Origin: an uncultured Enterobacterales bacterium
GTDB lineage: Bacteria > Pseudomonadota > Gammaproteobacteria > Enterobacterales > GCA-2746155
Reading direction: 5' to 3'
NCBI GenBank assembly: GCA_964559635.1
Contig: CAZLIR010000001.1
Location: 1 to 38,485 of the forward strand
Length of the DNA stretch: 38,485 nucleotides
Shown here piece after piece: positions 1,809 through 28,399 of this stretch; the stretch's first letter is position 1, and each line of letters opens with the position of its first letter. Under the pieces are notes generated by a model, which was not told the origin of the DNA, searched no databases, and saw nothing but the letters and a program-made list of their open reading frames with translations. Both the position numbers and the translations under genes were made by a program.

Positions 1809-2528
1809 CTAGGCCCGTTTCTTGCCAAAAAAGCCAAGTATTTTATCTTTGTTACTGACCTTAACCTCTATTTGAGGCACCTCGACAGAAGAGTCCGTTT
1901 CTTTGTTCCAGCTATTGAGCAGATGAGTCAGTACAAAGGCCTGACCAGCCAGGCTGTCTAATTCTTCAGCTGTATTACTCTCACCCGTGTAACGATCGAC
2001 ACTATGCTGTTTTTTAGCCAGCCGGTGTTCAGGATATTGCGCCTGATATTTAGCCAGTTTGAAGCGGATATTATTGATCACAACTCGTAATAAACTCACC
2101 TTGGTCTGTAATTTGATCTCAGAAAAATCATGTAAGTCACCAAACACTCTGAAATCAGTGGCAATTACCTGAGTTTTCTCTGCAGCGAAGCCAGTTGATG
2201 CTGCCAGCGTGGCTGTTCTGGGCTGATCATTGATAATACTCAAGGCACCGATAATTTCACCCGTGGTTAACTGATTGAGTGCTTTGTCACCAGGTTGGGC
2301 CTCAGAAAATACATCTAAGTGGCCGCTGCCTAAAAAATAAATCTTTTTACCGACCTTGCCTTTATGCAGTAATACTTCACCCGGATTGAGGGTAATTAGC
2401 TTACTGTGCGCCAATAACAGGTTGAATTGTCCATAGTCACTAAGCTTGAGTTCTTTAAGGTAGGGGATTCTATCGATGAATTCTTTTTCCTCGGCGGCAC
2501 TCAAGCTACTGATGTCTCTCATTTTCAT
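1809..2528 (-). CDS. Cyclic-nucleotide-binding domain protein with no recognisable HTH
   Basis: 239-aa ORF with an ATG start. It has a cNMP-binding beta-barrel pattern (KIYFLGSGHLDVF ... GEIIGALSIINDQPRTATLAAST, a phosphate-binding-cassette-like G-E...R-T-A). The C-terminal 90 aa show no Crp/Fnr-type helix-turn-helix by eye. Confidence 0.7.
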   Translation of the reverse strand: MKMRDISSLSAAEEKEFIDRIPYLKELKLSDYGQFNLLLAHSKLITLNPGEVLLHKGKVGKKIYFLGSGHLDVFSEAQPGDKALNQLTTGEIIGALSIINDQPRTATLAASTGFAAEKTQVIATDFRVFGDLHDFSEIKLQTKVSLLRVVINNIRFKLAKYQAQYPEHRLAKKQHSVDRYTGESNTAEELDSLAGQAFVLTHLLNSWNKETDSSVEVPQIEVKVSNKDKILGFFGKKRA

Positions 2529-2675
2529 GTAGATGTTCTCTCATTCTAAATGGCAGCTTCATATGAGCTGGTTTTATCGAATCGACATGACTAAACCACT
2601 TGTCTATACTCTTCGGATATCTATATAAATTATAGGCCCTATCGGTAAATAAACACGGTACTACTTCACATTACG

Positions 2676-3797
2676 ATGAACTTAATTCTGTTTGCCATAC
2701 CTTTCTTCATTGTTTTAATCGCAATGGAGTTAGCTGTCGATCGCTATCGTGGCACCGGTTATTATCGTATCAACGATTCAATCTCTAGTCTAAACGCCGG
2801 TATATTCAGTCGTGTAACCATCATATTTTGGCGTCTGGCACCGGTGGCGGTCTATTACTACGTTTATCAAAACTGGTCAGCGACAGAATTACCTGTTAAT
2901 GGCATAACCTGGGTTGTCGCCTTCGTCAGCTATGACTTTTTTTATTACTGGTATCATCGTATAAGCCACGAGCGAAACCTGTTTTGGGCCGCGCATGTAG
3001 TCCACCATTCCAGTGAAGAATACAACCTGACAACAGCCTTACGCCAGAGCTCGGGTTCATTGTTAAATTGGATTTTTTATTTGCCGATGGCTCTGGTCGG
3101 TATTGACCCGGTACAAATGGCAACCGTTGCTGCACTCAACTTGCTATACCAATTTTGGGTTCACAGCCGTCATATCCCAAAGCTTGGCTGGTATGAAAAC
3201 TGGTTTGTGACACCATCTAATCATCGCGTGCATCATGCCATTAACGACCAGTACATTGATAAAAACTATGGTGGTGTATTTATTATTTGGGATCGGATGT
3301 TTGGTACATTCCAAGAAGAGCAGGCTGAAATACCTTGCGTCTATGGTATCAGAAAACCACTGAGTAGCTGGAACCCGGTCTGGACCAACTTGCATCATTA
3401 TGCCCTGTTGATGAAAGATACATGGTATACCAAGCGATGGTCAGACAAGGTGGGTCTGTGGTTTGCTAAAACCGGTTGGCGTCCACAAGATGTGTCAGAG
3501 CAATACCCGCTTCAGTCGTTCAACATAACCACGTTTAAAAAATTTGATACTGAACTATCACCATTTATCAAAGCCTATGCTTTATCTAATCTGTTGCTGA
3601 TCATCGTAGGTCTGGGATATTTCATGCTGCAGAGTAGGGTGATAACAACATCAGAAATACTCTCTTATGGTGCCATCATCTATGGCAGTTGCTTCTCACT
3701 CGGATTAATTCTAGAAAACAGACGGTGGGCATTACCTGTTGAGATAGCCCGACTCGTTATTATTGGCATTTTCTTGCAACACAGTTCAATCGCTTAA
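2676..3797 (+). CDS. Fatty acid hydroxylase / sterol desaturase superfamily membrane di-iron oxygenase (alkylglycerol monooxygenase-like)
   Basis: 373-aa ORF with multiple TM segments. Histidine boxes are HRISHE, HVVHHSSEEYNLTTALRQ and HRVHHAIN. The HHSSE-YNL-TALRQ block is characteristic of the sterol-desaturase/AGMO branch. An extra C-terminal region of about 120 aa is hydrophobic. Confidence 0.75.
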   Translation: MNLILFAIPFFIVLIAMELAVDRYRGTGYYRINDSISSLNAGIFSRVTIIFWRLAPVAVYYYVYQNWSATELPVNGITWVVAFVSYDFFYYWYHRISHERNLFWAAHVVHHSSEEYNLTTALRQSSGSLLNWIFYLPMALVGIDPVQMATVAALNLLYQFWVHSRHIPKLGWYENWFVTPSNHRVHHAINDQYIDKNYGGVFIIWDRMFGTFQEEQAEIPCVYGIRKPLSSWNPVWTNLHHYALLMKDTWYTKRWSDKVGLWFAKTGWRPQDVSEQYPLQSFNITTFKKFDTELSPFIKAYALSNLLLIIVGLGYFMLQSRVITTSEILSYGAIIYGSCFSLGLILENRRWALPVEIARLVIIGIFLQHSSIA

Positions 3798-3898
3798 CTC
3801 CACAGGCTGCCGTTCGTGTAAATAGGTAAAATGTAACTGAAAATGTACATGTTTCAAGAATGTCATAATTAGGCAAAAAAAAGTCCAATAAAATCAAT

Positions 3899-3921
3899 AA
3901 TATTCTATTTAATAGAATATT
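3899..3921. promoter_or_regulatory. Perfect 11-1-11 palindrome, candidate operator upstream of the opsin gene
   Basis: AATATTCTATT-T-AATAGAATATT lies 85 nt upstream of the opsin ATG. It sits just upstream of a possible -10 element (TATAGT, 3933-3938) in an AT-rich intergenic region. Confidence 0.35.
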
Positions 3922-4005
3922 TTATTCTAAATTATAGTATGTTCGATTTATCCGATAGTTCGTAAGAACTAGCTCAATAATAAAATTCGAGGAGAATCGA
4001 AGATA

Positions 4006-4719
4006 ATGGATAAAATGCTCATGCTAAATCCTAACGACTATGTTGGGGTTACATTCTGGATCATATCCGCTGCTATGGTAGCAGCTACCTATTTCTTCAC
4101 AGTCGAGCGTGACCGTGCTGTTGGGAAATGGAAAACATCATTAACCGTCGCAGCAATGGTTACAGGTATTGCCGCGATCCACTACTTCTATATGAGAGGC
4201 GTTTGGGTTTCAAGCGGTGAGAGTCCTACTACATTCAGATATGTAGATTGGTTACTCACAGTACCTCTACAGATAGCAGAGTTCTACTTAATCCTGGCAG
4301 CAATCGCTGTTGTTCGCGCTGCACTATTCTGGAAATTACTCATTGCTTCATTAGTAATGTTAATTACTGGTTTTGTCGGCGAGCTAGACGGTGGTGCTTC
4401 TAACACTACTTGGATTATGTTTGTTGTATCTTGTGCTGCTTGGTTCTACATCATCTACGAAATCTTCGCAGGTGAAGCAAGCAAGATTAACGCCTCTGAA
4501 GGTACAGCCGCGTCTAAGAAAGCATTCTCAGCATTGAGAATCATTGTTACATTCGGTTGGGCCATTTATCCATTAGGCTACCTATATGGATACGCCGGTG
4601 GTGGTGATGCCAATATGTTAAACATCATCTACAACCTTGCAGATTTTGTTAACAAAATTGCATTCGGTGTAATCATTTGGGCAGCAGCTACTTCTAGCAG
4701 TTCTCAAGATAACGCCTAA
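4006..4719 (+). CDS. Proteorhodopsin (light-driven proton-pumping microbial rhodopsin), predicted blue-absorbing
   Basis: 237-aa, 7-TM ORF with RBS GAGGAG at 3989-3994. It is near-collinear with canonical green proteorhodopsin: FFTVERDR..KWKTSLTV, IHYFYMRGVW, RYVDWLLTVPLQIAEFYL, FGWAIYPLGY, IYNLADFVNKIAFGVIIW. Local D81/T85/E92 correspond to D97/T101/E108, H59 to H75, K217 to the Schiff-base K231, and Q89 to tuning position 105. There is no cleavable N-terminal signal peptide. Confidence 0.95.
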   Translation: MDKMLMLNPNDYVGVTFWIISAAMVAATYFFTVERDRAVGKWKTSLTVAAMVTGIAAIHYFYMRGVWVSSGESPTTFRYVDWLLTVPLQIAEFYLILAAIAVVRAALFWKLLIASLVMLITGFVGELDGGASNTTWIMFVVSCAAWFYIIYEIFAGEASKINASEGTAASKKAFSALRIIVTFGWAIYPLGYLYGYAGGGDANMLNIIYNLADFVNKIAFGVIIWAAATSSSSQDNA

Positions 4720-4730
4720 TCTGGTCACAT

Positions 4731-4755
4731 GAGTGCCTGCCTTGTGCAGGCGCTC
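4731..4755 (+). terminator. Stem-loop between the opsin gene and crtE (possible partial terminator or attenuator)
   Basis: GAGTGCCTGC-cttgt-GCAGGCGCTC forms a 10-bp stem (one G-U pair) with a 5-nt loop, starting 12 nt after the opsin TAA. The downstream T-tract is weak and displaced (atcagCTTTT). Confidence 0.4.
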
Positions 4756-4763
4756 ATCAGCTT

Positions 4764-5786
4764 TTGGAGTTACAGGTGAGAAATCCTGATGTAAATAACA
4801 ATAAAAATAAACAATTTGTCACTCATCAAAACCTGACAAACAAACACCTATTAGAAAAATTAATCTCAAGCATTCAAACAACCATTCCAAAACCGCATCA
4901 TCCGCTACACGAAGAAGCACAATTACATTTCGAACGACCAGGTAAACACTTAAGAGGATTGACCTCACTTCTCCTATCACAGGCACTCGAGTTACCTGTT
5001 AAGCCGTCACTAGACTGGGCCGTAGCTGTTGAGCTAATGCATAATGCCTCTCTTGTCCATGATGATATATGTGATAAAGATACGATGCGACGCGGTCAGA
5101 CATCAGTCTGGCTAAAATTTGGTACAGATAAGGCACTGTGTCTGGGTGATTGGCTTGTCGCTCAATCATTCAAAGCAGCTGCGAAATCATTTAAAGATTC
5201 AAAAGCTTCTGCGATGGCAATTGCATCACTCGCAGAGGCCATGGCGACCCTATGCGCGGGTCAAGCCAGAGAGTTTGATAGAAAACCAGTACTCGACTGG
5301 TTCACCTATGACCGGATTGTCACTGAGAAAACTACCCCACTTCTGAAGGCATCCGTGCTTGGTCCCTTGCACATGGCCGGTGAAACGACACTCATCAAAC
5401 CACTCTCAGAGCTATTCACAAAAGTGGGTCTTGCTTATCAGATGGCCAACGATTTACAGAATGTCATGATCGATGACGGCCACGAAGACAGTTTTTCTGA
5501 TTTAAAACGCGGTGCGCCTAATGCCGTGATTGTCAGTTATGTGGCACAGGTGGTCATGGAACAACACAACGAATTTCTAGACTGGTACGAGACTCGCTCG
5601 GACAGTCAATTTTCATTCTGGAAGCATGGGATCATTGAATCTGAAGCTATCCACAACACATGTGCGCGACTCAACCACATGATCAATGACATCGATAAGA
5701 CGATATTATCCTTGCCTAATCACATCAGTGAGAGCCTGATGCCAATGATCAGTTATTTGCAACAAATTCGGGTGGTTGCAAAATGA
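4764..5786 (+). CDS. crtE: Geranylgeranyl diphosphate synthase (polyprenyl synthetase family)
   Basis: First Asp-rich motif LVHDDICDKDTMRRG is canonical, and GKHLRG is present near the N-terminus. The second motif region is GLAYQMANDLQN...SDLKRG. The track start is TTG 4764; GTG 4776 with GGAG at 4766-4769 is an equally good or better start. The stop overlaps the crtI ATG (ATGA). Confidence 0.85.
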   Translation: MELQVRNPDVNNNKNKQFVTHQNLTNKHLLEKLISSIQTTIPKPHHPLHEEAQLHFERPGKHLRGLTSLLLSQALELPVKPSLDWAVAVELMHNASLVHDDICDKDTMRRGQTSVWLKFGTDKALCLGDWLVAQSFKAAAKSFKDSKASAMAIASLAEAMATLCAGQAREFDRKPVLDWFTYDRIVTEKTTPLLKASVLGPLHMAGETTLIKPLSELFTKVGLAYQMANDLQNVMIDDGHEDSFSDLKRGAPNAVIVSYVAQVVMEQHNEFLDWYETRSDSQFSFWKHGIIESEAIHNTCARLNHMINDIDKTILSLPNHISESLMPMISYLQQIRVVAK

Positions 5787-7327
5787 GTAATGTCGAGCAC
5801 ATTCCCGGTTCAGCCGACATGAGTACCGATATCGTGGTGATTGGTGGTGGTTTCGGTGGTATTGCCAGTGCTTTACGATGTCGCGCATTAGGCATGTCAG
5901 TGTTATTAATCGAACGACTCGATGAGATCGGCGGCAGAGCCCAGGTTTTTAAAAAAGACGGCTTCACACACGATGCCGGTCCAACAGTAATCACAGCACC
6001 ATTTCTCTTCACTGAGCTCTACGAACTCTTTGATGAAGACATAGACGACCACTTGATATTCAAACACCTTGAGCCATGGTATCGCTTTTACTTCCACGAT
6101 GGACGTAACTTCGATTATGGTCATGATCTGGAAAAGATGAAGCAACAAATTGCGCAATTCAGTCCGGCTGATGTCGATGGTTATGACAAGCTGGTGAGTC
6201 ACTCCCATGAAATTTTTAATGTCGGATTTACTGAGTTAGCCGATAAGCCATTTCACAAATTCCTGACCATGGTACGACAAATACCTGCACTGCTAAAACT
6301 GGGAGCATATCGAACGGTCAGCCAAATGGTTGCCAAGTATATAAAGCATCCTTTGCTACGCAGAGCATTGTCGATACAACCTCTGCTGGTTGGTGGGAAC
6401 CCTTTCACTACAACTTCAATCTATAGTCTAATCCACTATCTTGAAAGAGAGTGGGGCATTCACTTTTGCATGGGCGGTACGGGTAAACTGGTGTCAGAGA
6501 TGCGTAAACTGATGGAGCGTCAGGGCGTTGACATTCTCACTGGTCAGGATGTTGGACAGATCACCTTGGATGGTGATCGGGTTAATGCTGTTCATCTCAG
6601 TGATGGGCGAGTTATTCAAGCAAACCATGTGATCTGTAATGCTGATCCGCCGACAGTCTATCGTGAGATGCTCGATCGATCCTCACCCTATGCAACCAAG
6701 CCCAAACGCATCATCCCTGAAAGTATGACGCAATATTCCATGGGTTTGTTTGTGCTTTATTTCGGTACCACGAAACAATATCCCGATATCGCACACCACA
6801 CCATTTGGCTGAGCGAGCGGTTTAAAGAATTACTCCATGACATCTTTACCGCAGATCAACTCAGTGAGGATTTCTCGCTGTATTTGCATCGTCCAACAGC
6901 CACGGATCCAAGTTTTGCTCCAGAGGGTTGTGACAGTTTTTATGTTCTTTGCCCAGTGCCTAATCTTCAGGCCACCAATATCGACTGGGAGCGTGATGGT
7001 CCATTATTGAGAGACCAAATTGTCAAGGCACTCAGTGACACCATAATGCCTGAATTGGAGCAAACAATAACCGCTGACTTTTACATGACTCCACAAGAGT
7101 TTAAACAGGACTATCGCTCGACCCATGGTGCGGGATTCTCGATTGCCCCCATTTTCAGACAGTCGGCCTGGTTCAGATACCACAACCAAGATCCGCATAT
7201 CGACAACCTGTACTTTGTCGGCGCAGGGACCCACCCCGGAGCGGGTGTACCGGGTGTGCTGAGTTCAGCAAAGGTAGTCGAAAATATCATACGTGAAAAA
7301 ATAATAAAATTAAGAGAGGTAGCTTGA
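5783..7327 (+). CDS. crtI: Phytoene desaturase (phytoene to lycopene)
   Basis: 514 aa with the N-terminal FAD dinucleotide fold DIVVIGGGFGGIASALR...IERLDEIGGRA. The C-terminal signature is LYFVGAGTHPGAGVPGVLSSAK. Position within the crt operon supports the call. Confidence 0.93.
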   Translation: MSNVEHIPGSADMSTDIVVIGGGFGGIASALRCRALGMSVLLIERLDEIGGRAQVFKKDGFTHDAGPTVITAPFLFTELYELFDEDIDDHLIFKHLEPWYRFYFHDGRNFDYGHDLEKMKQQIAQFSPADVDGYDKLVSHSHEIFNVGFTELADKPFHKFLTMVRQIPALLKLGAYRTVSQMVAKYIKHPLLRRALSIQPLLVGGNPFTTTSIYSLIHYLEREWGIHFCMGGTGKLVSEMRKLMERQGVDILTGQDVGQITLDGDRVNAVHLSDGRVIQANHVICNADPPTVYREMLDRSSPYATKPKRIIPESMTQYSMGLFVLYFGTTKQYPDIAHHTIWLSERFKELLHDIFTADQLSEDFSLYLHRPTATDPSFAPEGCDSFYVLCPVPNLQATNIDWERDGPLLRDQIVKALSDTIMPELEQTITADFYMTPQEFKQDYRSTHGAGFSIAPIFRQSAWFRYHNQDPHIDNLYFVGAGTHPGAGVPGVLSSAKVVENIIREKIIKLREVA

Positions 7328-7328
7328 T

Positions 7329-8270
7329 ATGAATGCTCACAACATCATTCTGGAGAAGGCTACAGACTGTATTACCTCTAATGAAGTATTGCGTAATCAT
7401 GGACGTTCATTTTACTGGGCGCGATTCTTTTTGGGTGAACAAGCGGCCGAGAATGCCACACGTCTGTATTCATTTTGTCGTTATTTAGACGACGTAGCTG
7501 ATGGTGACATCGCCGGTGGTTTACCACGCTTACAGTCACTTAGAAAACAGCTCAATGGCAATGAAAAAATTCAAGACAGAAGATTATTGAATTACTTATC
7601 GTTGTACGAGGATAAGCAGGCTGCCAAAATTTATGCCTTAAATTTACTTGAGGGCCTCATTTCTGATCAGGGTTTAGTCAATCTGACAAACGATGAGGAA
7701 CTCATTCGCTATGGCTATTTTGTTGCAGGAACAGTGGGTCTGATGATGTCACCTTTTCTTGGTGTGGCTGATGCTAAAGCTTTGCCTTTTGCCATCGATC
7801 TTGGCGTGGCTATGCAACTTACCAACATCTGTCGTGATGTACTAGAAGATGCCGAGTCCGGCCGGCGCTATATTCCGGTTGCGTTAACCACTGAGCAAAT
7901 CTGTATGGCATCCGAGGATCCAGAATCTGACCATGCCAGGCTTATAGCAGAGGAAATCAATCGCATATTGGATATTGCCGATGGCTACTATCAATCAGGC
8001 TTAGAGGGCTTATATTTCTTATCGCCGCAGTCGCAGAAAGCGATTGCTGTCACAGCCATGGTGTATCGCCAAATTGGCATTAAACTGCGTGAAAACAACA
8101 CTGACTGGTTTAATGGCCGCACGGTGGTTTCATCATTTGAAAAGATCTCACCAACCATGAAAGCCCTGTTCTCAGTCAACGAGTGGATCAGAAATGAGCC
8201 ATCTCACAAGGTCGATTTACATACCCATCTTCGAGACTTACCCGGTGCCAATGGGCTGAGCCACCTTTGA
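7329..8270 (+). CDS. crtB: Phytoene synthase
   Basis: 313 aa with squalene/phytoene synthase motifs YSFCRYLDDVADG and QLTNICRDVLEDAESGRRYIP. It starts 1 nt after the crtI stop. Confidence 0.93.
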   Translation: MNAHNIILEKATDCITSNEVLRNHGRSFYWARFFLGEQAAENATRLYSFCRYLDDVADGDIAGGLPRLQSLRKQLNGNEKIQDRRLLNYLSLYEDKQAAKIYALNLLEGLISDQGLVNLTNDEELIRYGYFVAGTVGLMMSPFLGVADAKALPFAIDLGVAMQLTNICRDVLEDAESGRRYIPVALTTEQICMASEDPESDHARLIAEEINRILDIADGYYQSGLEGLYFLSPQSQKAIAVTAMVYRQIGIKLRENNTDWFNGRTVVSSFEKISPTMKALFSVNEWIRNEPSHKVDLHTHLRDLPGANGLSHL

Positions 8271-8276
8271 TGCACC

Positions 8277-9410
8277 ATGCAAACAATACCAAACGCCAAA
8301 GATGCTGAAATAGCGATTGTTGGAGGTGGACTTGCCGGCCGGCTTTTAGCCTACCGATATATCAGTGAAACGCGCAAAAGCGTCTGTTTGATTGACCCAT
8401 CAAACCAGCGAGAAGATCACATATTTGGCTTCTTTGACGATGGTCGTGACAGCATCAAGCTACCCCGCTCACTCGCCAGTCATTCATTTAATCGCTGGAC
8501 CATCAATAACGCACAGATCCGAACCACACATACCCCCCGTGCTCACTGGTATCGACTGATTTCCGCCTCTGATTATGAGCAACATCTTTTAAACCACTAC
8601 CAGAGCTCCGAGCGATTTACGCTCATCCGTGATTGCGTCGAGAATCAAGAGTGCATGGGTGATATTACGCAGCTTAGATTGCACAGTGGTGCAATAATAG
8701 GTGTAAAGCAATGCTTCGACTCGAGAGCCAATATTGCCAATGGCGATTACCTGATGCAGCACTTTCTCGGACAGTATGTCAGAGTTGAAACACCAACCTT
8801 TAATCCAAACTCCGTTGAGCTGATGAATTTTAGTGTTGATCAGAGTGCGGGCATGCATTTTATGTATGTATTACCGTTCTCAGAAACAGAGGCATTAGTA
8901 GAATCAACGGTGTACTCAACAGAAACTCACGATGCTGATTGGTACAAAGCACATATCACTGAGTTTTTATTGAAGAATTACTCACTAGCTGACTATGAGG
9001 TATATAACACTGAGCAGGGTGTGATCCCCCTGACTTATGATAAACCTCATGACTCATTTGGAACCGCTGTTGGGCTACGTGCGGGGGCATTGCGAACCTC
9101 AAGCGGCTATGCCTTTAGCCAAATTCATGATCAAGTGTATCGCATCAATTTAGGCAATCCGCAAAAGATAGCCAAATCACATACCCAAGTTGAGCGTTGG
9201 ATGGATGACATCCTGCTGCGAGTTTTGAGAAACTATCCCGATATTGCCCCGGCAGTATTTAATAAAATGGCGCAGGTGCTCGATGGTGATCAATTTGCAA
9301 CATTTATGCTGGGTAGGTCACCTTTGTGGGATAAGATTCGATTAATTCTCAGGCTACCGAAACAACCTTTTCTGCACCAGACCTTGCTTGGTAAGAGGAT
9401 GACACAATGA
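8277..9410 (+). CDS. crtY: Lycopene beta-cyclase
   Basis: 377 aa with N-terminal IAIVGGGLAGRLLA. CrtY-type blocks are present: QHFLGQY, FMYVLPF, EQGVIPL, GALRTSSGYAF. Confidence 0.9.
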   Translation: MQTIPNAKDAEIAIVGGGLAGRLLAYRYISETRKSVCLIDPSNQREDHIFGFFDDGRDSIKLPRSLASHSFNRWTINNAQIRTTHTPRAHWYRLISASDYEQHLLNHYQSSERFTLIRDCVENQECMGDITQLRLHSGAIIGVKQCFDSRANIANGDYLMQHFLGQYVRVETPTFNPNSVELMNFSVDQSAGMHFMYVLPFSETEALVESTVYSTETHDADWYKAHITEFLLKNYSLADYEVYNTEQGVIPLTYDKPHDSFGTAVGLRAGALRTSSGYAFSQIHDQVYRINLGNPQKIAKSHTQVERWMDDILLRVLRNYPDIAPAVFNKMAQVLDGDQFATFMLGRSPLWDKIRLILRLPKQPFLHQTLLGKRMTQ

Positions 9411-10201
9411 TCCTCAGCACCTTGATTCCGATAAGTTTAATTCTCATTGCTGGCATGCCACATGGTGCCGCTGACGGAGCACTGGCTGTTTCTCGGTATC
9501 AGGCAACCATGCAACGACTGGCATTTTTTCTGGCCTATATTGGAGCTGCCATTATCGGCTATCTGCTTTGGATGCTGGCACCCACGGCCATGTTGGTGGT
9601 ATTTCTGGTTATGACCGTGTTCCACTTTGGCTCTGGAGATGCACGTTTCTTTAATCACTCCAGCACAGCAAAGTTAGCCGCAATCGCCCATGGTGCGACC
9701 CTGTTGATTTTCATGAGTATTGCGCACCCAACAGAGATATCTCGTCTTATCGCCATACTTATTGGCGCAGAGCAGACTGCCCATGTGGTGATGTTCATGC
9801 AGTGGTCGGTCGTTGTCTGGTCCATTGCCGTGCTGCATACTCTGGTTCAGAGTCAGGAAAAATTGCCGTTTGTGCTAGAAATCGCTGCCATCATTGCGCT
9901 CTCTGTGGTGCTAGAGCCACTATGGAGTTTCTGTATTTACTTTTGCTTAATACATTCAATGCGGCATTTTCGAAACATCTACCCAGTGCTTAAACAGTCT
10001 CGCTACACCACTCATTTGACGATTTTACTAACGCTTTTGGGTCTGGTACTGGTAGCAATACTGTACCTCTTCAGCGAAAATATCGTACTGAGTGATGCAC
10101 TATTTCAATCAACCATAATCGCGTTGTTCATGTTGACCATACCGCACATGATATTCATCGATTATCTTAAACCGGTAAAACGTTATGCAAATGATCGTTA
10201 A
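9407..10201 (+). CDS. blh: Beta-carotene 15,15'-dioxygenase (Brp/Blh family), makes retinal
   Basis: 264-aa polytopic membrane protein with the four conserved His contexts of Blh: GMPHGAADG, VFHFGSGD, LIHSMRHF, IPHMIFID. Its ATG overlaps the crtY stop (ATGA). Confidence 0.85.
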   Translation: MILSTLIPISLILIAGMPHGAADGALAVSRYQATMQRLAFFLAYIGAAIIGYLLWMLAPTAMLVVFLVMTVFHFGSGDARFFNHSSTAKLAAIAHGATLLIFMSIAHPTEISRLIAILIGAEQTAHVVMFMQWSVVVWSIAVLHTLVQSQEKLPFVLEIAAIIALSVVLEPLWSFCIYFCLIHSMRHFRNIYPVLKQSRYTTHLTILLTLLGLVLVAILYLFSENIVLSDALFQSTIIALFMLTIPHMIFIDYLKPVKRYANDR

Positions 10202-11219
10202 TCGCAAGAATCAACATCTTGATTTGGCCGCTGATGACCGGTCACAATCGCAAACAAGCTCAGATTATGACCGGGTAAATTTTGTCCACAATGCACTGCC
10301 GGAATTATCATTAGATACGATCAATAGCTGCTGTGAAATGTGGGGCGCAGAGTTCTCAATACCCTGTATGATCGGTGCCATGTCAGGGGGCACGGGGCGT
10401 GGTGATGCAATGAACGAGGCGCTTGTTCAAGCGGCAGAGAAGGTAAAAATCCCGTTCGCTCTGGGCTCGCAGCGCGCCAGTATCGAATCCGATACAAGCC
10501 AAAAAAGGTTACGACAATTAGGACCTAACGCCTTCATCATCGGTAACTTGGGTGGAGCGCAGATTATCGGACAAAAAGGGCTTGATCTGGCTAGGCGTGC
10601 TGTCGATGATGTTGAAGCCAACGCCCTGATGATCCATTTGAATCCATTACAAGAGGCGATGCAACCAGAGGGTAATACCAACTGGCGCGGCGTGAGTGAT
10701 TCGCTTGAGTCTCTGGTTGAGCAGTTAGACATTCCGATCATCGTAAAAGAAGTCGGTGCCGGACTGTCAGTCAGCGTTATCAAGCGCTTGTATGATCTGG
10801 GGATCCGTACAGTAGAAACAGCGGGTATTGGAGGTACTAATTGGACTCGTATTGAAGCACTACGTCACCAATATGAGGATAATCCACTCAACTGCTACTT
10901 GGAGTGGGGAGTCAGAACCGTTGACACCCTCATAGAACTTAGGCAATGCAGACATGAACTACCAACATTGAATGTTGTTGCTTCAGGGGGTATTCGGCAT
11001 GGTCTGGACTGTGCCAGAGCGCTCTGGCTTGGTGCTGATATGTGCGCCATGGCACAACCGTTTCTACTCGCTGCTCTGGATAAAGAAATGGATGATGCAA
11101 TTGATGCTGTGGCAACATTGGTGTCTGATACGAAAAAACAACTGGAACTGGCCATGTTCCTGACAGGTTGTGCTGATTTAGAAACATTTCGTGAGCAGGC
11201 AGAAGTGGTCATCAAATAG
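10185..11219 (+). CDS. idi: Isopentenyl-diphosphate delta-isomerase, type 2 (FMN-dependent)
   Basis: 344 aa with N-terminal NRKNQHLDLA. TIM-barrel FMN motifs are IIVKEVGAGLS, AGIGGTNW and ASGGIRHGLDCARALWLGAD. It overlaps the blh 3' end by 17 nt. Confidence 0.9.
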   Translation: MQMIVNRKNQHLDLAADDRSQSQTSSDYDRVNFVHNALPELSLDTINSCCEMWGAEFSIPCMIGAMSGGTGRGDAMNEALVQAAEKVKIPFALGSQRASIESDTSQKRLRQLGPNAFIIGNLGGAQIIGQKGLDLARRAVDDVEANALMIHLNPLQEAMQPEGNTNWRGVSDSLESLVEQLDIPIIVKEVGAGLSVSVIKRLYDLGIRTVETAGIGGTNWTRIEALRHQYEDNPLNCYLEWGVRTVDTLIELRQCRHELPTLNVVASGGIRHGLDCARALWLGADMCAMAQPFLLAALDKEMDDAIDAVATLVSDTKKQLELAMFLTGCADLETFREQAEVVIK

Positions 11220-11365
11220 GTTATTTACCTGCGCCCTTAACGACATAGCTCTCGTTAATCAGTCTTATAGAAAGATACTGTTACAAACATCCTTACTCTA
11301 GTCTTTATTTAATTCAACATCATCCCAATATTCATTGATAACTAAAGTATATCGGAGTCAGTCAT

Positions 11366-11989
11366 TTGAAAACGGATGCACAATTTTGGGATGGAGTTTC
11401 AAGCAAATATTCCGCAAAGCCAGTTCCTGATGAATCTATCTATGAACAAAAATTAGCGATCAGTCGCAAATATCTCAAGCCTGATCATCAGGTCATGGAG
11501 TTTGGTTGCGGTACCGGAACAACAGCATTGAAACACGCAGGTGATGTGGAACACATCATTGCTTATGACTTTTCACCCGAGATGATTAAGATTGCAAAAA
11601 GTAAACAAGCGGCGCAGGGCAATGCTGATAATGTTGAATTTAAAATTGCCGCTGTTGAAGATATCGATTTTGGTAACGACCAGTTCGATGCCATCATGGG
11701 ACACAGTATCCTCCATCTTACATTTGACAACGAAGTAACGCTCAAAAAAATATTCAAAGGCTTAAAACCCGGTGGTGTATTTATATCGGGCTCCGGTTGT
11801 CTAAAAGAGATGAACCCACTGATCCGCATGGCTATTCCCATTATGCAGTTTTTTGGTAAGGCACCCGCGGTTAATGCGTTCTCCTCTATCGAATTAGTGA
11901 ACCTTCACACAGCCTGTGGATTTAAGATTGTTGAGCGTTGGGATTATAAAAAAGGCGAACTCTATCTGGTTGCACAAAAGCCTGAATAA
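11366..11989 (+). CDS. Class I SAM-dependent methyltransferase
   Basis: 207 aa with motif I VMEFGCGTGT and post-I/motif II-like AYDFSPEM...FDAIMGHSILH. TTG start with GGAG 9-10 nt upstream. Confidence 0.75.
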   Translation: MKTDAQFWDGVSSKYSAKPVPDESIYEQKLAISRKYLKPDHQVMEFGCGTGTTALKHAGDVEHIIAYDFSPEMIKIAKSKQAAQGNADNVEFKIAAVEDIDFGNDQFDAIMGHSILHLTFDNEVTLKKIFKGLKPGGVFISGSGCLKEMNPLIRMAIPIMQFFGKAPAVNAFSSIELVNLHTACGFKIVERWDYKKGELYLVAQKPE

Positions 11990-12110
11990 TTCGGATAAAA
12001 ACCGAACAATAACTACTGGCGGCTAATCAATATTTGAATGTTGATGTCTGTGGTATAGTCTTATGCGATGTATTAAACACTAATTGCATAATGCCTCAGG
12101 AGGTTAGCCA

Positions 12111-13820
12111 ATGAAAACAGTAGTCTCCATTATCACAATAGCTTTTTTCTTAATATCTTGTAGCGATGAGCCCATTGACTACGCCGATAAAATCTATCAA
12201 AACGGCACGATCATCACGATGGATAATAGTAATCCGCTTGCGGCTGCTCTGGCGACAAAAAATGGCTTAATTCAGGCAGTCGGTACTAAAGAGGCAATTC
12301 AAAAGCTCAAGGGCCCCGAAACTGAGGTGGTCGATCTGGCTGATAAGACGTTAGTGCCAGGCTTTATTGATGCGCATAGTCATTTCGCCGGCGTCGGTGT
12401 GCAATCCATTGTTGCTAACCTGTTACCAGCACCTGATGGCCCGGTGAATAGCATCGAGGATTTACAGCGAGTACTGAAAGAATTTCACCAAAACTCATCA
12501 ATTGCCAAAGACTATGGCGTGATTATTGGTTTTAATTATGATGATTCACAGCTAAAAGAGCAGCGCCATCCAACGCGACAAGAACTTGATGTCGTGAGTA
12601 CCGAATTGCCGGTCGTTGTTATGCATCAATCAGGTCATCTGGGAGCCTATAACTCAAAAGCGCTCGAACTGATGGGGATTACATCTGAGTCCGTCGACCC
12701 TCCCGGCGGCGTGATTGAGCGCGAGGCCGACGGTAAAACACCGAGTGGCGTGATGCAGGAAAATGCCCATTTCATGTTGTTCTTTAAATTACTGCCACAG
12801 TTTAGTGCTGAAGATATGGTGAAATCGTATCAGGCAGGAGAACATAGTTATGTTTCTAATGGTTTTACCACCGTTCAGGAAGGAAAATCTGATCTGGCAA
12901 CATTACAAAGCCTACCGCAAATTGCGGCCGAGGTTGGTTTTAGTATCGATATTATCTCATACCCAGACTTTAAGGTTCTGAGTGACCATGCCATATTGCG
13001 CAGCGATCTGATGTCCAGTGAGTATCAAAATGGTTTTCGAATTGGTGGTGTAAAGCTCACCTTTGATGGCTCGCCTCAGGGTAAGACTGCCTGGTTCACC
13101 GAACCTTATCTGGTCCCGCCAGCTGGTCAGCCAGCTGACTATGCCGGATATCCGGCATTTGAAGATAAGGAGGCCTACGACCTGTTGCAACTGGCTTACC
13201 AAAATAACTGGCAAATCATGGTACACACCAACGGCGATGCAGCGGTTGATCAGTTATTGCAGCTCGTTGGCAAAATAGCGGAAGAAAGGGCGCTTGGTGA
13301 CCATCGCACAGTGATGATCCATGGCCAGTTCACTCGAGAGGATCAGGTTGCGCAACTAAAGGCACTCGGTATTTTTCCGGCACTGTATCCGATGCATACT
13401 TTTTACTGGGGAGATTGGCATCGAGATTCGGTTGCTGGTCCAGAGCGAGCTAATAATATTTCACCTACGGGCTGGATGTTGAGGGAAAACATAAAATTCA
13501 GTGTTCACTCCGACGCGCCTGTGACATTTCCAAACTCAATGCGTCTGCTGGATAGTGTTGTTAATCGCACGACCAGAACAGATCAGGTACTTGGTGAAGA
13601 GCATCGTGTTACACCCATGCAGGCACTCAAAGCCATGACCATATGGCCCGCCTATCAACACTATGAAGAGAAAATTAAAGGATCCTTAGAGGTTGGTAAG
13701 CAGGCAGATTTCGTCATCTTAGACCGCGATCCGCTTACGATTGAGCATCGGGAGCTGAAAAATATCAAAGTACTGCAAACGATCAATAATGATCAACTAA
13801 TCTATGACGCAGATCGTTGA
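12111..13820 (+). CDS. Amidohydrolase-family metal-dependent hydrolase, lipoprotein
   Basis: 569 aa with RBS AGGAGG. The signal peptide has a lipobox (FFLISC). The HxH metal motif GFIDAHSHF is present, followed later by MVHTNGD, MIHGQF and SVHSDAP blocks typical of the Amidohydro_3 family. Confidence 0.75.
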   Translation: MKTVVSIITIAFFLISCSDEPIDYADKIYQNGTIITMDNSNPLAAALATKNGLIQAVGTKEAIQKLKGPETEVVDLADKTLVPGFIDAHSHFAGVGVQSIVANLLPAPDGPVNSIEDLQRVLKEFHQNSSIAKDYGVIIGFNYDDSQLKEQRHPTRQELDVVSTELPVVVMHQSGHLGAYNSKALELMGITSESVDPPGGVIEREADGKTPSGVMQENAHFMLFFKLLPQFSAEDMVKSYQAGEHSYVSNGFTTVQEGKSDLATLQSLPQIAAEVGFSIDIISYPDFKVLSDHAILRSDLMSSEYQNGFRIGGVKLTFDGSPQGKTAWFTEPYLVPPAGQPADYAGYPAFEDKEAYDLLQLAYQNNWQIMVHTNGDAAVDQLLQLVGKIAEERALGDHRTVMIHGQFTREDQVAQLKALGIFPALYPMHTFYWGDWHRDSVAGPERANNISPTGWMLRENIKFSVHSDAPVTFPNSMRLLDSVVNRTTRTDQVLGEEHRVTPMQALKAMTIWPAYQHYEEKIKGSLEVGKQADFVILDRDPLTIEHRELKNIKVLQTINNDQLIYDADR

Positions 13821-13830
13821 GCAACTGGGC

Positions 13831-15126
13831 TCAACTACTTTGGTTTATTTCTTTGGCTGCCCGAATACCCGATTCAAGTGCACCCTGAATCCAGCCCTCG
13901 TAGTTTGAAGCATGTTCGCCGGCAAAATGGATCCGCCCTTCAGGCTCACTCAGTGATGCCTTAAGATTCGATTCCTGACTGTCTGTCGGCGACGCATAGG
14001 CAGCGCCTGTCCACTCCTGCTTACTCCAGGCAAAAACATAATTGTTGACGATATAGTCATCCAAATCAGGCATAACAGTTCGCCAGCGGTTATGCACTGA
14101 TGCCACTTGCTCTTGCGGTGTCATGGAATCAAATACTTCTGCTGCTAATTCTCTGAAATAGCTTTGTATAATCCCGCCATTACCGGTTTGATTCCAGGTG
14201 GGTTGCCATACCTCCTCAAATTCCGTATTTCCCCAACCATTGAGGTTGTCGAATTGCCAGAAGCGCTCAGAAAATTGGGTGTATAAACGCGAAGATTCAA
14301 CGTAGTTATACCCACCATTGCTCGCCACTTGTTTGTCACTGGACAAGGCTGGTTGGAATTCGATTTTGTTAAGTACCGGAACAGGCACTGTGCATAATAC
14401 CCGATCAGCAACATATATCTCATCATCAGCCGTTGTGACCGTTACGCCGTTATCGTCTTGCTGAATTAAAGTAGCAGCCACTGAGAATTCAATCTTGGAT
14501 AACATCACATCACGCATTGCGTTAGGTAAGCCAGACATACCTCCAACAATTTTTTGGTAGGCATTACGATTCACAGAGCCAGGCCAGGGTGGTTGACTAA
14601 TATACTCGGCAGCATTAATTCTCTGAACCTGATTGCCCACTAAGTCAAAATAATCACCAGAAGTTGAATAAAACGGCTCAAGTGACAGACCAAAATGCTC
14701 GGCATAATCGAGTGTGTATTGATGATTTGAGGGGATCCGCGATGCTCCAGATTCAGTAAATTGTCCCTCCGCAAATGGTGAAAAAAGTGTATTCACTCGT
14801 CCACCGACCCGGTCTCGGGCTTCTAAAATAGTCACCTCATGACCGACTTGTGATAACTCATAAGCGGCTACCAAACCGGCCATCCCAGCACCAATAATGA
14901 CAATACTCTGAACACCATTGCCTGTGGTGAGTACCTGACCCGGACGATCAGTTGTCGTTGGTGGTGGCGGAGGAGGCTCGGGATTAACCTGTGATGAACC
15001 GCCACAGCCATATAGAGATAGGGCCGTTGAAGTTAATAATGACTTGGCAATAAATTGTCGGCGATTTAGATTGTTAGATCTAATTCGGGCTCGAGGGTGT
15101 TTTATAAAAGAGTCACTCACACACAC
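13831..15126 (-). CDS. Flavin-containing amine oxidase / L-amino-acid-oxidase-like, Tat-signal lipoprotein
   Basis: 431 aa with a twin-arginine motif NRRQFIAKS followed by the lipobox-like SLYGC. A poly-Pro linker (PEPPPPPPTT) follows. FAD fold IVIIGAGMAGLVAAYEL...ILEARDRVGGR and C-terminal FAGEH are present. GTG start. Confidence 0.75.
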   Translation of the reverse strand: MCVSDSFIKHPRARIRSNNLNRRQFIAKSLLTSTALSLYGCGGSSQVNPEPPPPPPTTTDRPGQVLTTGNGVQSIVIIGAGMAGLVAAYELSQVGHEVTILEARDRVGGRVNTLFSPFAEGQFTESGASRIPSNHQYTLDYAEHFGLSLEPFYSTSGDYFDLVGNQVQRINAAEYISQPPWPGSVNRNAYQKIVGGMSGLPNAMRDVMLSKIEFSVAATLIQQDDNGVTVTTADDEIYVADRVLCTVPVPVLNKIEFQPALSSDKQVASNGGYNYVESSRLYTQFSERFWQFDNLNGWGNTEFEEVWQPTWNQTGNGGIIQSYFRELAAEVFDSMTPQEQVASVHNRWRTVMPDLDDYIVNNYVFAWSKQEWTGAAYASPTDSQESNLKASLSEPEGRIHFAGEHASNYEGWIQGALESGIRAAKEINQSS

Positions 15127-25700: not shown

Positions 25701-26141
25701 ATGAGGGATCAGATGAGCATGTTTTCAACTAATAAATATAAATTCCTAGTTTATGTCAGCCGAAAAAGTGATGGGTTAAACTCTGACATGATTGCAGATA
25801 TCATATCTAAAGCTGTCATCAATAATGCTATGAATGACATCACTGGGATACTTCTGATTAAAAGGAACTATTTCTATCAGTTTATCGAGGGGACAGAAGA
25901 GGCCGTCGATGCCCTGTATGCAAAATTACAATGTGATAAGCGCCATGATGATTTGCACATACTCATGACTGGTTATGAGAACAAGCGAGTTTTTCCTATC
26001 TGGGATATGCATCCAATCTATTCAGACACGCCTGACCAACAATTCTACGATTTCGTCAAACAATGTCAGATACCGGAAGTTAAAGATAGTCTTCAGCAAT
26101 TTTGTATTAATGATAAGCCGCTGGTCGAAGCGTATCATTAG
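25701..26141 (+). CDS. Short stand-alone BLUF-domain blue-light photoreceptor
   Basis: 146 aa with the BLUF pattern FLVYVS...NNAMNDITGILL...YFYQFIEGTEEAVDALYAKLQCDKRHDD...RVFPIWDMH. Tyr18, Gln60, Trp101 and Met103 have exactly the spacing of AppA Y21/Q63/W104/M106. The start could instead be ATG 25713 or 25719 (GAGGGA at 25703-25708). Confidence 0.85.
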   Translation: MRDQMSMFSTNKYKFLVYVSRKSDGLNSDMIADIISKAVINNAMNDITGILLIKRNYFYQFIEGTEEAVDALYAKLQCDKRHDDLHILMTGYENKRVFPIWDMHPIYSDTPDQQFYDFVKQCQIPEVKDSLQQFCINDKPLVEAYH

Positions 26142-26779: not shown

Positions 26780-28378
26780 TTAGTTATAGTGCTGCATATT
26801 TAGTATTTGTTTTAACCACACATCATGCGGTGGTAACTTTGATGGCGCAGCTTGCAATCGACGCGCGACATTAGGATGCACCTGTGTGTGATGACGAGAG
26901 TTCCCATGGCGTTGCGCCATCTCATCACCCATGAAATCCATACCGAACATAATCGCCTCATAACTGGTAGCGGGGAATATATTTCCGGTATCGACTGGTT
27001 GCCGAATATCACTGAAGCCTTCCGGTCTCTGTGCACCTGAATTCGGTGTCGTAGGAAAGTGTTGATCTTCAAAGTCAGTATCAGTGGGTGCTTTGTGCTG
27101 CCAGAATTCCAGTTTCGCCTTCAACCGCTCAGTGATGCGTTCTGATTTTTGTACCTCTCGCCAGAATTCGCTGTCTTGTCGCTTGGTGAGGCAATAATGT
27201 AAATTGATAAAATCAAGAATCTCATGGAAGCGGTTATAGATGATGCGATTGTAGCGATATGCCAGCTGCTCCATGTCATCGCTCATGGGGAAATATTCTC
27301 TGAGCATAACCGCGGCCAGATCGCTCAGATACAGTCCGGTCGATTCTAGTGGCTCAATAAATCCTGCCGATAATCCAATCGCGACACAATTCCCGACCCA
27401 CGCTCGTTCTCGATACCCTACCTTGAATTTTACCAGGCGTGTATCAAGGTCATGGCTATGGTCACCCTCGTAGGTGCGTAATTCTGCTTCAGCCTCATCA
27501 CGAGAAATAAAGTCACTGGCGTGAACATAACCCACGGCGCGTCTATTTTGTAATCCGATATCCCATATCCAACCACTCGATAGGGCGGTTGCAGTTGTGT
27601 ATGGCTTCACTGTACCGGGGTAGTAATGCTCATAAGGAATTTTCATCGTTAATGCCTGATCACAGAGTAGCCACTGTGATACATCAACGAATTTAACGCC
27701 CATAGCTTTTTCAATCAAAAGAGCTGCAAAGCCAGTACAATCAATAAATAAATCCGCCTCCAGAACCTGTCCTGATTGACACTTAACCGCTTGAATATTG
27801 CCGTTGTCTTTCACCAATACTTCATCGACGTGATCGAGGTAGTGCGATACACCCCTAGCGGTACTATGCTGCTGTAGGAAATGCGCAAACTTTGTCGCAT
27901 CCATATGAAATGCGTACTTCAGTGGCGCGCCAAAATCCCAGGGCCCCATCATCATCGGAGACAAATTCATTTCGCATATTTTGGGCTGTATCGATACCGT
28001 TTCCATAAACGGAATGCTGCGATCGCTGTTAAACCAATCTGCTCCGGTATGATCAATCGGTGCCTCTCTGAAGCGCTGAAATGAATGGTGGTATGACTCG
28101 CCCTGATTATGCAACCAGTTACTAAATTTAATTGACTGCTTGAAGGTAGCATCTGTGGCTTTCATGAATTCAATCAGGTCAACACCAATAACACTAAGTA
28201 TGTGATTGATACTTGGGATGGTTGCTTCACCCACGCCGATGATCGGCACGTCGGGTGATTCAACCAGAGAGATCTCAGCAACCTGTCTGCCGGGGCGATT
28301 CAAGGCGGCATTCAGGTAGGCGGCGGTCATCCAGCCAGACGACCCTCCACCAACAATTAATACTTTTCTCGGCTTCAT
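26780..28378 (-). CDS. Flavin-dependent halogenase family protein (tryptophan-halogenase-like)
   Basis: N-terminal KVLIVGGGSSGWMTAAYL is followed by GVGEATIPS, then the Lys-containing ATFKQSIKFSNW. Other blocks are CTGFAALL, GWIWDIGL (a variant of WxWxIP) and GFIEPLESTGL. I prefer ATG 28378 (GGGGA 8 nt upstream) over the track TTG at 28393. Confidence 0.85.
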   Translation of the reverse strand: MKPRKVLIVGGGSSGWMTAAYLNAALNRPGRQVAEISLVESPDVPIIGVGEATIPSINHILSVIGVDLIEFMKATDATFKQSIKFSNWLHNQGESYHHSFQRFREAPIDHTGADWFNSDRSIPFMETVSIQPKICEMNLSPMMMGPWDFGAPLKYAFHMDATKFAHFLQQHSTARGVSHYLDHVDEVLVKDNGNIQAVKCQSGQVLEADLFIDCTGFAALLIEKAMGVKFVDVSQWLLCDQALTMKIPYEHYYPGTVKPYTTATALSSGWIWDIGLQNRRAVGYVHASDFISRDEAEAELRTYEGDHSHDLDTRLVKFKVGYRERAWVGNCVAIGLSAGFIEPLESTGLYLSDLAAVMLREYFPMSDDMEQLAYRYNRIIYNRFHEILDFINLHYCLTKRQDSEFWREVQKSERITERLKAKLEFWQHKAPTDTDFEDQHFPTTPNSGAQRPEGFSDIRQPVDTGNIFPATSYEAIMFGMDFMGDEMAQRHGNSRHHTQVHPNVARRLQAAPSKLPPHDVWLKQILNMQHYN

Positions 28379-28399
28379 TGATGAGATCCCCAATCGCTA

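Follow-up and report, generated by a model that had tools for sequence, protein, structure and literature searches.

Does the rhodopsin locus at positions 4006–11219 of contig CAZLIR010000001.1 encode a complete light-driven proton pump together with its own chromophore supply, how are its genes expressed relative to one another, and how did it come to reside where it does? The stretch analyzed here, hereafter the window, comprises 38,485 nt (38.5 kb) from an uncultured bacterium, and an initial annotation had described the locus as a self-contained, transferable operon for an opsin and its retinal. Considering gene families, residues, relatives and context, it is highly probable that the locus represents an intact, chromosomal seven-gene proteorhodopsin (PR) photosystem of an uncultured marine or estuarine member of the Alteromonadales. 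This reading includes the retinal pathway, the pump function, an attenuated expression of the enzyme genes and a lateral origin in the past. Nothing was found that contradicts its core, a PR proton pump accompanied by a complete enzyme set leading from isopentenyl diphosphate (IPP) to retinal. As the initial annotation had recognized, the cassette is not new, but an already described system, matching the published PR-crtEIBY-blh-idi photosystem of marine bacteria. The features of most further interest are a near-universal hairpin behind the opsin gene and an Asn-type CrtE.

Gene content and predicted function

According to the list of open reading frames (ORFs) of the window, all seven genes run co-directionally on the forward strand. 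Profile searches against Pfam and NCBIfam/TIGRFAM models, evaluated with the model cut-offs, assigned them to families with E-values spanning 1e-21 to 1e-168:

4006–4719, + strand: opsin (proteorhodopsin), 237 amino acids (aa); PF01036 Bac_rhodopsin, 7e-45, 153.7 bits against a cut-off of 24.6
4776 (GTG)–5786, + strand: crtE, trans-polyprenyl diphosphate synthase, 336 aa (mechanical ORF from TTG 4764); PF00348 polyprenyl_synt, 4.9e-39
5783–7327, + strand: crtI, phytoene desaturase, 514 aa; crtI_fam TIGR02734, 2.2e-168, 561 bits against a cut-off of 238
7329–8270, + strand: crtB, phytoene synthase, 313 aa; PF00494 SQS_PSY, 4.6e-50, 171 bits against a cut-off of 26
8277–9410, + strand: crtY, lycopene beta-cyclase, 377 aa; PF05834 Lycopene_cycl, 1e-35, 124 bits against a cut-off of 23.4
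9407–10201, + strand: blh, Brp/Blh beta-carotene 15,15'-dioxygenase (membrane protein), 264 aa; TIGR03753, 3.3e-46, 158 bits against 95.25; PF15461, 4.3e-39
10185–11219, + strand: idi, type-2 FMN-dependent isopentenyl-diphosphate isomerase, 344 aa; TIGR02151, 1.8e-100, 336.2 bits against 281.3, full length (6–342)

These results bear out the seven families named in the initial annotation, and the profile search it had proposed as a check places the 237-aa ORF inside the microbial rhodopsin family. Its account of the junctions proved exact on re-reading of the coordinates, with 4-nt ATGA overlaps at crtE/crtI and crtY/blh, a 17-nt overlap at blh/idi and gaps of 1 nt (crtI/crtB) and 6 nt (crtB/crtY). 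The tight packing it had described applies to the junctions of the six enzyme genes, but not to opsin/crtE, where the opsin end lies 44 nt from TTG 4764 and 56 nt from GTG 4776, with a hairpin inside. The latter codon is the crtE start in public gene calls and has a GGAG 6 nt upstream. The exact proteins of the cassette are already deposited and annotated at NCBI (including metagenome-assembled genomes, MAGs), JGI and ENA, where they appear as bacteriorhodopsin-like, polyprenyl synthetase family protein (geranylgeranyl pyrophosphate synthase at JGI) or Brp/Blh dioxygenase.

Over the whole core of seven transmembrane helices, the opsin is approximately 57–60% identical to the solved blue and green PRs, i.e., it is not a near-copy of any of them. 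Its best solved relative is the Mediterranean blue PR Med12 (4JQ6, 1.2e-82, residues 7–231 aligned); green PR (2L6X and 7B03, ~5e-78) and the HOT75 blue PR (4KLY, 1.3e-72, and 4KNF) were matched as well, the E-values ranging from 1.2e-82 to 1e-72. Global alignment to green PR (GPR) equated H59 with H75, R78 with R94, D81 with D97, T85 with T101, E92 with E108, D213 with D227 and K217 with K231. The initial annotation had named D81/T85/E92, H59 and K217 correctly, and R78 and D213 add to this set. The opsin combines the Schiff-base Lys and the counter-ion Asp with equivalents of D97/T101/E108 (DTE), H75 and R94, as is required of a DTE proton pump, and it shares DTE, H75, K231 and D227 with the three structurally solved PRs. 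Retinal would form a Schiff base with K217, D81 serving as proton acceptor paired with H59, and R78 and D213 as counter-ions. With E92 as proton donor, the pigment would pump protons outward in the light, thereby adding to the proton-motive force. A GPR-type N-terminal signal peptide is missing, reflected by a 16-residue N-terminal gap relative to GPR.

The spectral class was read at GPR position 105, where Leu or Met denotes a green and Gln a blue pigment. Since Q89 of the opsin aligns with GPR L105 and with the corresponding Gln of Med12, the opsin is predicted to be a blue-tuned PR absorbing at approximately 490 nm, a property absent from the initial annotation. GPR (31A08) is reported to carry Phe at the "fenestration" position, Gly156 of xanthorhodopsin (XR), which blocks the binding of a carotenoid antenna (bioRxiv 10.1101/2022.08.24.505090). 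F139 of the opsin aligns with GPR F152 and predicts a non-fenestrated pigment with retinal as its sole chromophore; as the cassette additionally contains no crtZ-type carotenoid hydroxylase, antenna binding is not expected. Kin4B8 and KR1, which are fenestrated and bind an antenna, fall with the opsin into one PR/XR superclade of DTE proton pumps, but differ in having Gly at XR position 156 (bioRxiv 10.1101/2022.08.24.505090).

Judged from family membership and operon context, the enzymes would constitute a complete pathway from IPP to retinal within one cassette. Idi (type 2) would balance IPP and dimethylallyl diphosphate, and CrtE would build geranylgeranyl diphosphate (GGPP). CrtB would convert two GGPP into phytoene, CrtI phytoene into lycopene and CrtY lycopene into beta-carotene, which Blh would cleave with O2 into two all-trans-retinals. 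The catalytic motifs are intact in CrtI, CrtB, CrtY and Blh as well as in the first motif of CrtE. CrtI, which exceeds the cut-off of TIGR02734, has the FAD motif GGGFGG at residue 21; CrtB has the Asp-rich motifs DDVAD (54) and DVLED (170), and CrtY the dinucleotide-binding motif GGGLAG at residue 16. In Blh, H19, H73, H183 and H187 are spaced by 54, 110 and 4 residues, which matches the four essential iron-ligand His of the characterized marine 66A03 Blh. The first Asp-rich motif of CrtE, DDICD at residues 96–100, conforms to DDxx(xx)D, and Idi passed the type-2 equivalog model TIGR02151.

Several results weigh against assigning every step at the same level. The CrtB equivalog models are the top NCBIfam matches but stay below their cut-off (140 vs 480), and CrtY falls short of both TIGR01789 (65.5 vs 215) and TIGR01790, so that both proteins are assigned at the Pfam level only. 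For CrtE, the equivalog models of GGPP synthases (GGPPS) reach 65–106 bits against cut-offs of 460–500 (NF041003, 100.5 vs 500; NF045685, 65.6 vs 460; NF045549, 98.3 vs 475 bits). Its second Asp-rich motif is degenerate, reading NDLQN (residues 225–229, window 5448–5462) instead of DDxxD. The first Asp is replaced by Asn, as seen from the alignment to the best PDB matches, the archaeal GGPPS 1WY0 (DDvlD) and 5JFQ (DDllD). In addition, the residues at −5/−4 before the first motif are Ala-Ser, like in longer-chain synthases. The initial designation of crtE as GGPP synthase consequently stands at the level of the polyprenyl synthase family (PF00348), but not at that of an equivalog, and a C20 product is presumed from the operon context with the adjoining crtB.

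As a whole, the gene set has well-described counterparts. As summarized in a review (PMC8049014), Martinez et al. 2007 showed that a set of seven proteins is both required and enough for E. coli to synthesize retinal, show light-driven acidification and perform photophosphorylation. The Station ALOHA fosmids HF10_19P19 and HF10_25F10 carry the same seven functions in one co-directional cassette as the window. The host differs (an Alteromonadales MAG in case of the window), and the likeness is one of gene set, with the function being known for the prototype only. PR-linked crtEIBY-blh operons with an IPP isomerase gene were reported by Sabehi et al. 2005, together with the finding that Blh cleaves beta-carotene into all-trans-retinal; the bacterial artificial chromosomes MED66A03 (Mediterranean) and RED17H08 (Red Sea) show the order crtE-I-B-Y-blh beside PR and an IPP isomerase gene, as does the window (PMC1175822). 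Laterally acquired PR and crtEIBY-blh genes in classical gammaproteobacterial heterotrophs are likewise known from Vibrio campbellii BAA-1116 and Vibrio sp. AND4 (PMC3380642; PMC2860489). The V. campbellii cluster, however, lacks idi and has transposases on its flanks, and its PR is of the green type (L105) with a signal peptide, whereas the window has a blue-tuned opsin and no mobility genes (PMC3380642).

Approximately 50 related loci from Alpha- and Gammaproteobacteria, Planctomycetota and Methylophilaceae share the order PR-crtE-crtI-crtB-crtY-blh. A type-2 idi following blh was found in only one (L049) of the 79 non-self loci retrieved, which makes the form with idi a minority among the closest relatives of the window opsin. 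Cassettes of this type are minimal modules turning light into proton-motive force, which explains how heterotrophs can add to their energy supply. The copy in the window adds no new principle, but a predicted blue-tuned, non-fenestrated and idi-containing example in an Alteromonadales population seen in many metagenomes.

Selection was assessed as the ratio of nonsynonymous to synonymous divergence (dN/dS) between the window and three strain variants (L001, L002 and L003), which had been retrieved by their identical opsin protein. All seven genes are under purifying selection. The opsin has a dN/dS of 0 (no nonsynonymous changes), partly by construction because of this mode of retrieval, and the six enzymes range from 0.02 to 0.15 (crtE 0.04–0.08, crtI 0.02, crtB 0.04–0.09, crtY 0.12–0.15, blh 0.04, idi 0.09–0.12). 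Between strains, the dS of the opsin (0.025–0.031) lies 3–10 times below that of every neighboring gene (0.08–0.28). This could be due to ascertainment, the loci having been picked by an identical opsin protein, to codon selection in a highly expressed gene or to a recent allele sweep.

Proposed expression across the post-opsin hairpin

The question of how opsin and enzyme genes are expressed relative to one another centers on the stem-loop between opsin and crtE and on the region upstream of the opsin:

4729–4757, + strand: post-opsin stem-loop; 12-bp GC-rich stem (4729–4740 with 4746–4757), 5-nt loop, weak U tail (CAGCUUUUGG)
3909–3938, + strand: sigma-70-like promoter candidate (TTAATA, 18 nt, TATAGT), ~70 nt upstream of the opsin ATG; 9/12 consensus matches
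3989–3994, + strand: Shine-Dalgarno sequence GAGGAG, 11 nt upstream of the opsin start codon ATG; unchanged across all strain variants
3899–3921, no strand: perfect 11-1-11 palindrome AATATTCTATT-T-AATAGAATATT with 100% complementary arms, overlapping the predicted −35 hexamer

The post-opsin stem consists of 11 Watson-Crick pairs and one G-U pair, and folding of 4715–4785 yielded −25.8 kcal/mol (z −2.7). Its sequence is identical in nine strain variants; the tail reads CAGCTTTTGG in the window and CTCTTGG in most sister strains. The terminator scan did not call the hairpin, the T-run being too short, and so weak a tail sets it apart from canonical intrinsic terminators. The comparison of loci agrees with a functional element: of the 80 distinct related PR loci, 76 (~95%) have a strong hairpin within 90 nt of the opsin stop, across many phyla, with unrelated sequences and with or without downstream crt genes. 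The hairpins of the PR loci have a median free energy of −23.9 kcal/mol and a median z of −4.9 against shuffles, and among related loci with crt genes downstream, 52 of 53 have one after the opsin. We infer that the hairpin acts as a leaky terminator and/or as a 3'-end stabilizer, either of which would favor opsin mRNA over enzyme mRNA. We found no description of such an expression-ratio device in the cited PR literature.

The proposed expression would proceed from one promoter upstream of the opsin with the polymerase reading through the hairpin, or an opsin-internal promoter would transcribe across it. By either route, the hairpin would reduce the expression of the crt genes compared with that of the opsin, and the six enzyme genes would be translationally coupled via their overlaps or 1–6-nt gaps. 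The initial proposal of a single, translationally coupled transcript is retained for these six genes, but not for the step from opsin to crtE, which are parted by the conserved 12-bp hairpin.

Among the competing explanations, a division into two transcription units, with a monocistronic opsin and a separate crt-blh-idi operon under its own promoter, fares best and is nevertheless unlikely. It draws on the position of a strong hairpin directly after the opsin stop, on the near-universality of such hairpins after PR genes including full U-tracts in 13 of the 53 loci with downstream crt genes, and on a promoter-like sigma-70 site (4649–4676) that lies within the 3' end of the opsin gene and has an extended −10. 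However, only 18 nt separate the hairpin end from the crtE GTG at 4776, leaving no room for a promoter in between, so that any crt transcript has to cross the hairpin. Furthermore, the U tail is weak (TTTT; CTCTT in most strains) and the promoter scan yielded fewer sites than shuffled sequence. Strong purifying selection acts on the crt genes, so that their transcription must run through the hairpin.

Attenuation of the enzyme genes by the hairpin, which we prefer, has its own difficulties. The U tail is weak, and the site at 4649–4676 could drive the crt genes separately, though its transcript would still cross the hairpin. The idea that the U-tract is missing specifically where crt genes follow was not supported, with U-tracts found in 13 of 53 loci with and in 5 of 26 loci without them. 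Since U-tracts are no rarer when crt genes follow, a tuned read-through finds no comparative support beyond the ubiquity of the hairpin. At the other end of the cassette, no canonical terminator or terminator-like hairpin was found in the 146 nt after idi.

Upstream of the opsin, the promoter candidate represents a consensus match only, in a region with fewer sigma-70-like sites than shuffled sequence; apart from a few positions, this region is invariant in nine strain variants. The palindrome overlapping it is a weak and speculative candidate for an operator. Sister strains keep only its core, ATTCTATT-T-A[A/T]TAGAAT, with varying outer bases. Membership in a regulon was rejected, as the window contains no second good copy and the outer bases differ between strains. 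Two strain variants (L002 8769–8863 and L005 6727–6821) have an additional ~95 nt between the stop codon of the FA (fatty acid) hydroxylase gene and the conserved region upstream of the opsin, so that the left boundary of the cassette is polymorphic for an indel.

Chromosomal context and origin

At least 23 contigs carry the identical opsin, some of them from MAGs that are labelled Alteromonadales or Gammaproteobacteria. All ten of the examined contigs, from metagenomes and MAGs, show the same synteny: PAS-histidine kinase, cyclic nucleotide (cNMP)-binding protein (−), FA hydroxylase, cassette, methyltransferase, amidohydrolase and amine oxidase (−). A sister lineage (L092 and L093 10001–15754, compared with window 1809–15126) has kept the genes for the cNMP-binding protein, the FA hydroxylase and the amine oxidase at 72–75% aa identity, while a gene for a 1054-aa BNR/sortilin protein replaces 4006–13820, i.e., the PR cassette, the methyltransferase and the amidohydrolase. 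The interval between FA hydroxylase and amine oxidase is a variable chromosomal slot, and the sister lineage offers a clean natural contrast for studying how modules of this kind become established in a chromosome. The FA hydroxylase at the left cassette edge (2676–3797, + strand) comprises 373 aa compared with 401–415 aa in all relatives, and the absence of ~30 C-terminal residues may be the scar of an insertion or replacement event.

The closest opsins (up to 81% identity) and CrtI proteins (66–68%) are alphaproteobacterial, and other close opsins (75–78%) stem from MAGs of Gammaproteobacteria, Planctomycetota and Myxococcota. Pseudoalteromonas and Colwellia reach only 71–74% for the opsin and 51–52% for CrtI. 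Because the slot holds a different gene in the sister lineage and the closest relatives of the cassette belong to other classes and phyla, we infer that it was acquired laterally in the past and now represents a fixed chromosomal trait, which agrees with the published conclusions for PR clusters (PMC3380642).

The term transferable, used in the initial annotation, is thus justified historically, but not for the present state of the locus. That the cassette is part of a genomic island still able to move as a unit is very unlikely, even though the slot differs in the sister lineage, the FA hydroxylase is shortened exactly at the left edge of the cassette and transposases flank the PR clusters of V. 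campbellii (PMC3380642). Domain scans of the 38.5-kb window detected no integrase, transposase, relaxase or other mobility Pfam domain, and the window contains no tRNA or tmRNA and no Rfam family; direct repeats flanking the cassette were not found either. A GC content of 45.8% compared with 43.7% for the rest of the window, a GC content at third codon positions within the range of the flanking genes and the constant context on 10/10 contigs argue in the same direction. No close relative of the opsin was detected on plasmids (at most 34% identity), in phages (no match) or in IMG/VR, where the search returned only two giant-virus contigs at 46–50%.

Two further candidates at the cassette borders were rejected. 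A 17-nt inverted match (3793–3809/11910–11926) was judged to be due to chance, as part of it falls within the methyltransferase gene and its left arm shows no conservation among strains. The FA_hydroxylase gene at 2676–3797 was considered as a possible member of the cassette encoding a CrtZ-like carotenoid hydroxylase; its relatives are sterol-desaturase/alkylglycerol-monooxygenase proteins of Alteromonadaceae that occur without PR, and the gene is absent at other PR loci.

The Asn-type CrtE and alternatives to an active pump

Is the degenerate second motif of CrtE a lesion? In characterized prenyltransferases, the leading Asp of this motif plays an important part in catalysis. With NDLQN in place of DDxxD, the cassette could be a decaying relic with a dead crtE, the cell depending on exogenous retinal or on another GGPP source. 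An alignment of 48 PR-linked crtE genes (the window and loci from L012–L090) makes this highly improbable: the second motif begins with Asn (NDxx[D/N/G/P]) in 27 of them, the window included, and in many phyla. All 48 share Ala-Ser at −5/−4 of the first motif. Together with the dN/dS of 0.04–0.08 for crtE, this frequency identifies the Asn form as an old, conserved variant; tight coupling to crtI is retained, and Asn can still ligate Mg2+, as in the NSE motifs of terpene cyclases. The PR loci of Pseudoalteromonas and Colwellia carry a different, DD-type crtE. No description of the Asn-type second motif of PR-linked CrtE was found in the cited PR literature, and the N-type clade may have unusual Mg2+ or product properties.

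On a more tentative note, and with doubt prevailing, the post-opsin stem-loop may be a convergently maintained expression-ratio device and, at the same time, the N-type CrtE a distinct functional clade. If this proved true, the hairpin would keep opsin mRNA far above retinal-enzyme mRNA from the same promoter.

The photocycles of blue-tuned PRs are slower than those of green PRs, a difference that once gave rise to the proposal of a sensory role, and the window contains a gene for a BLUF blue-light sensor as well. A sensory or otherwise non-proton-pumping rhodopsin, or crt genes serving mainly to provide beta-carotene as a photoprotectant, can nevertheless be dismissed as hardly credible, given the full DTE pump motif with the H75, R94 and D227 equivalents, the absence of a transducer gene adjoining the opsin, the deposition of the closest solved relative Med12 (4JQ6) simply as "Proteorhodopsin" (termed BPR, blue PR, in bioRxiv 10.1101/2022.08.24.505090) and the presence of blh under strong constraint (dN/dS 0.04), because of which retinal and not beta-carotene is regarded as the end product.

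The BLUF gene (25701–26141, + strand) is located 14.5 kb downstream of the opsin and encodes a stand-alone 146-aa BLUF-domain protein, i.e., an FAD-based blue-light sensor (PF04940, 3.7e-25). It is a possible light-sensing partner of the putatively blue-tuned PR. A LOV photosensor upstream was rejected, the PAS-histidine kinase at 4–1776 being devoid of an NCRFLQ-type cysteine motif.

At four of the related loci, a second rhodopsin gene, 28–29% identical, follows directly in tandem after PR (L053 2494–3159, L072 4568–5221, L081 10833–11492 and L086 1014–1673). These loci belong to MAGs of Saprospiraceae, Emcibacteraceae, Methylophilaceae and Flavobacteriaceae, and the tandem genes precede the crt genes where the contig sequence allows this to be seen. 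Unrelated to the cassette, the window encodes a protein of the tryptophan-halogenase family (26780–28393, − strand; PF04820, 1.2e-130), neighbored by genes for a 995-aa TonB-dependent receptor and an Asp/Asn beta-hydroxylase-like protein and by a 262-aa ORF without a Pfam match.

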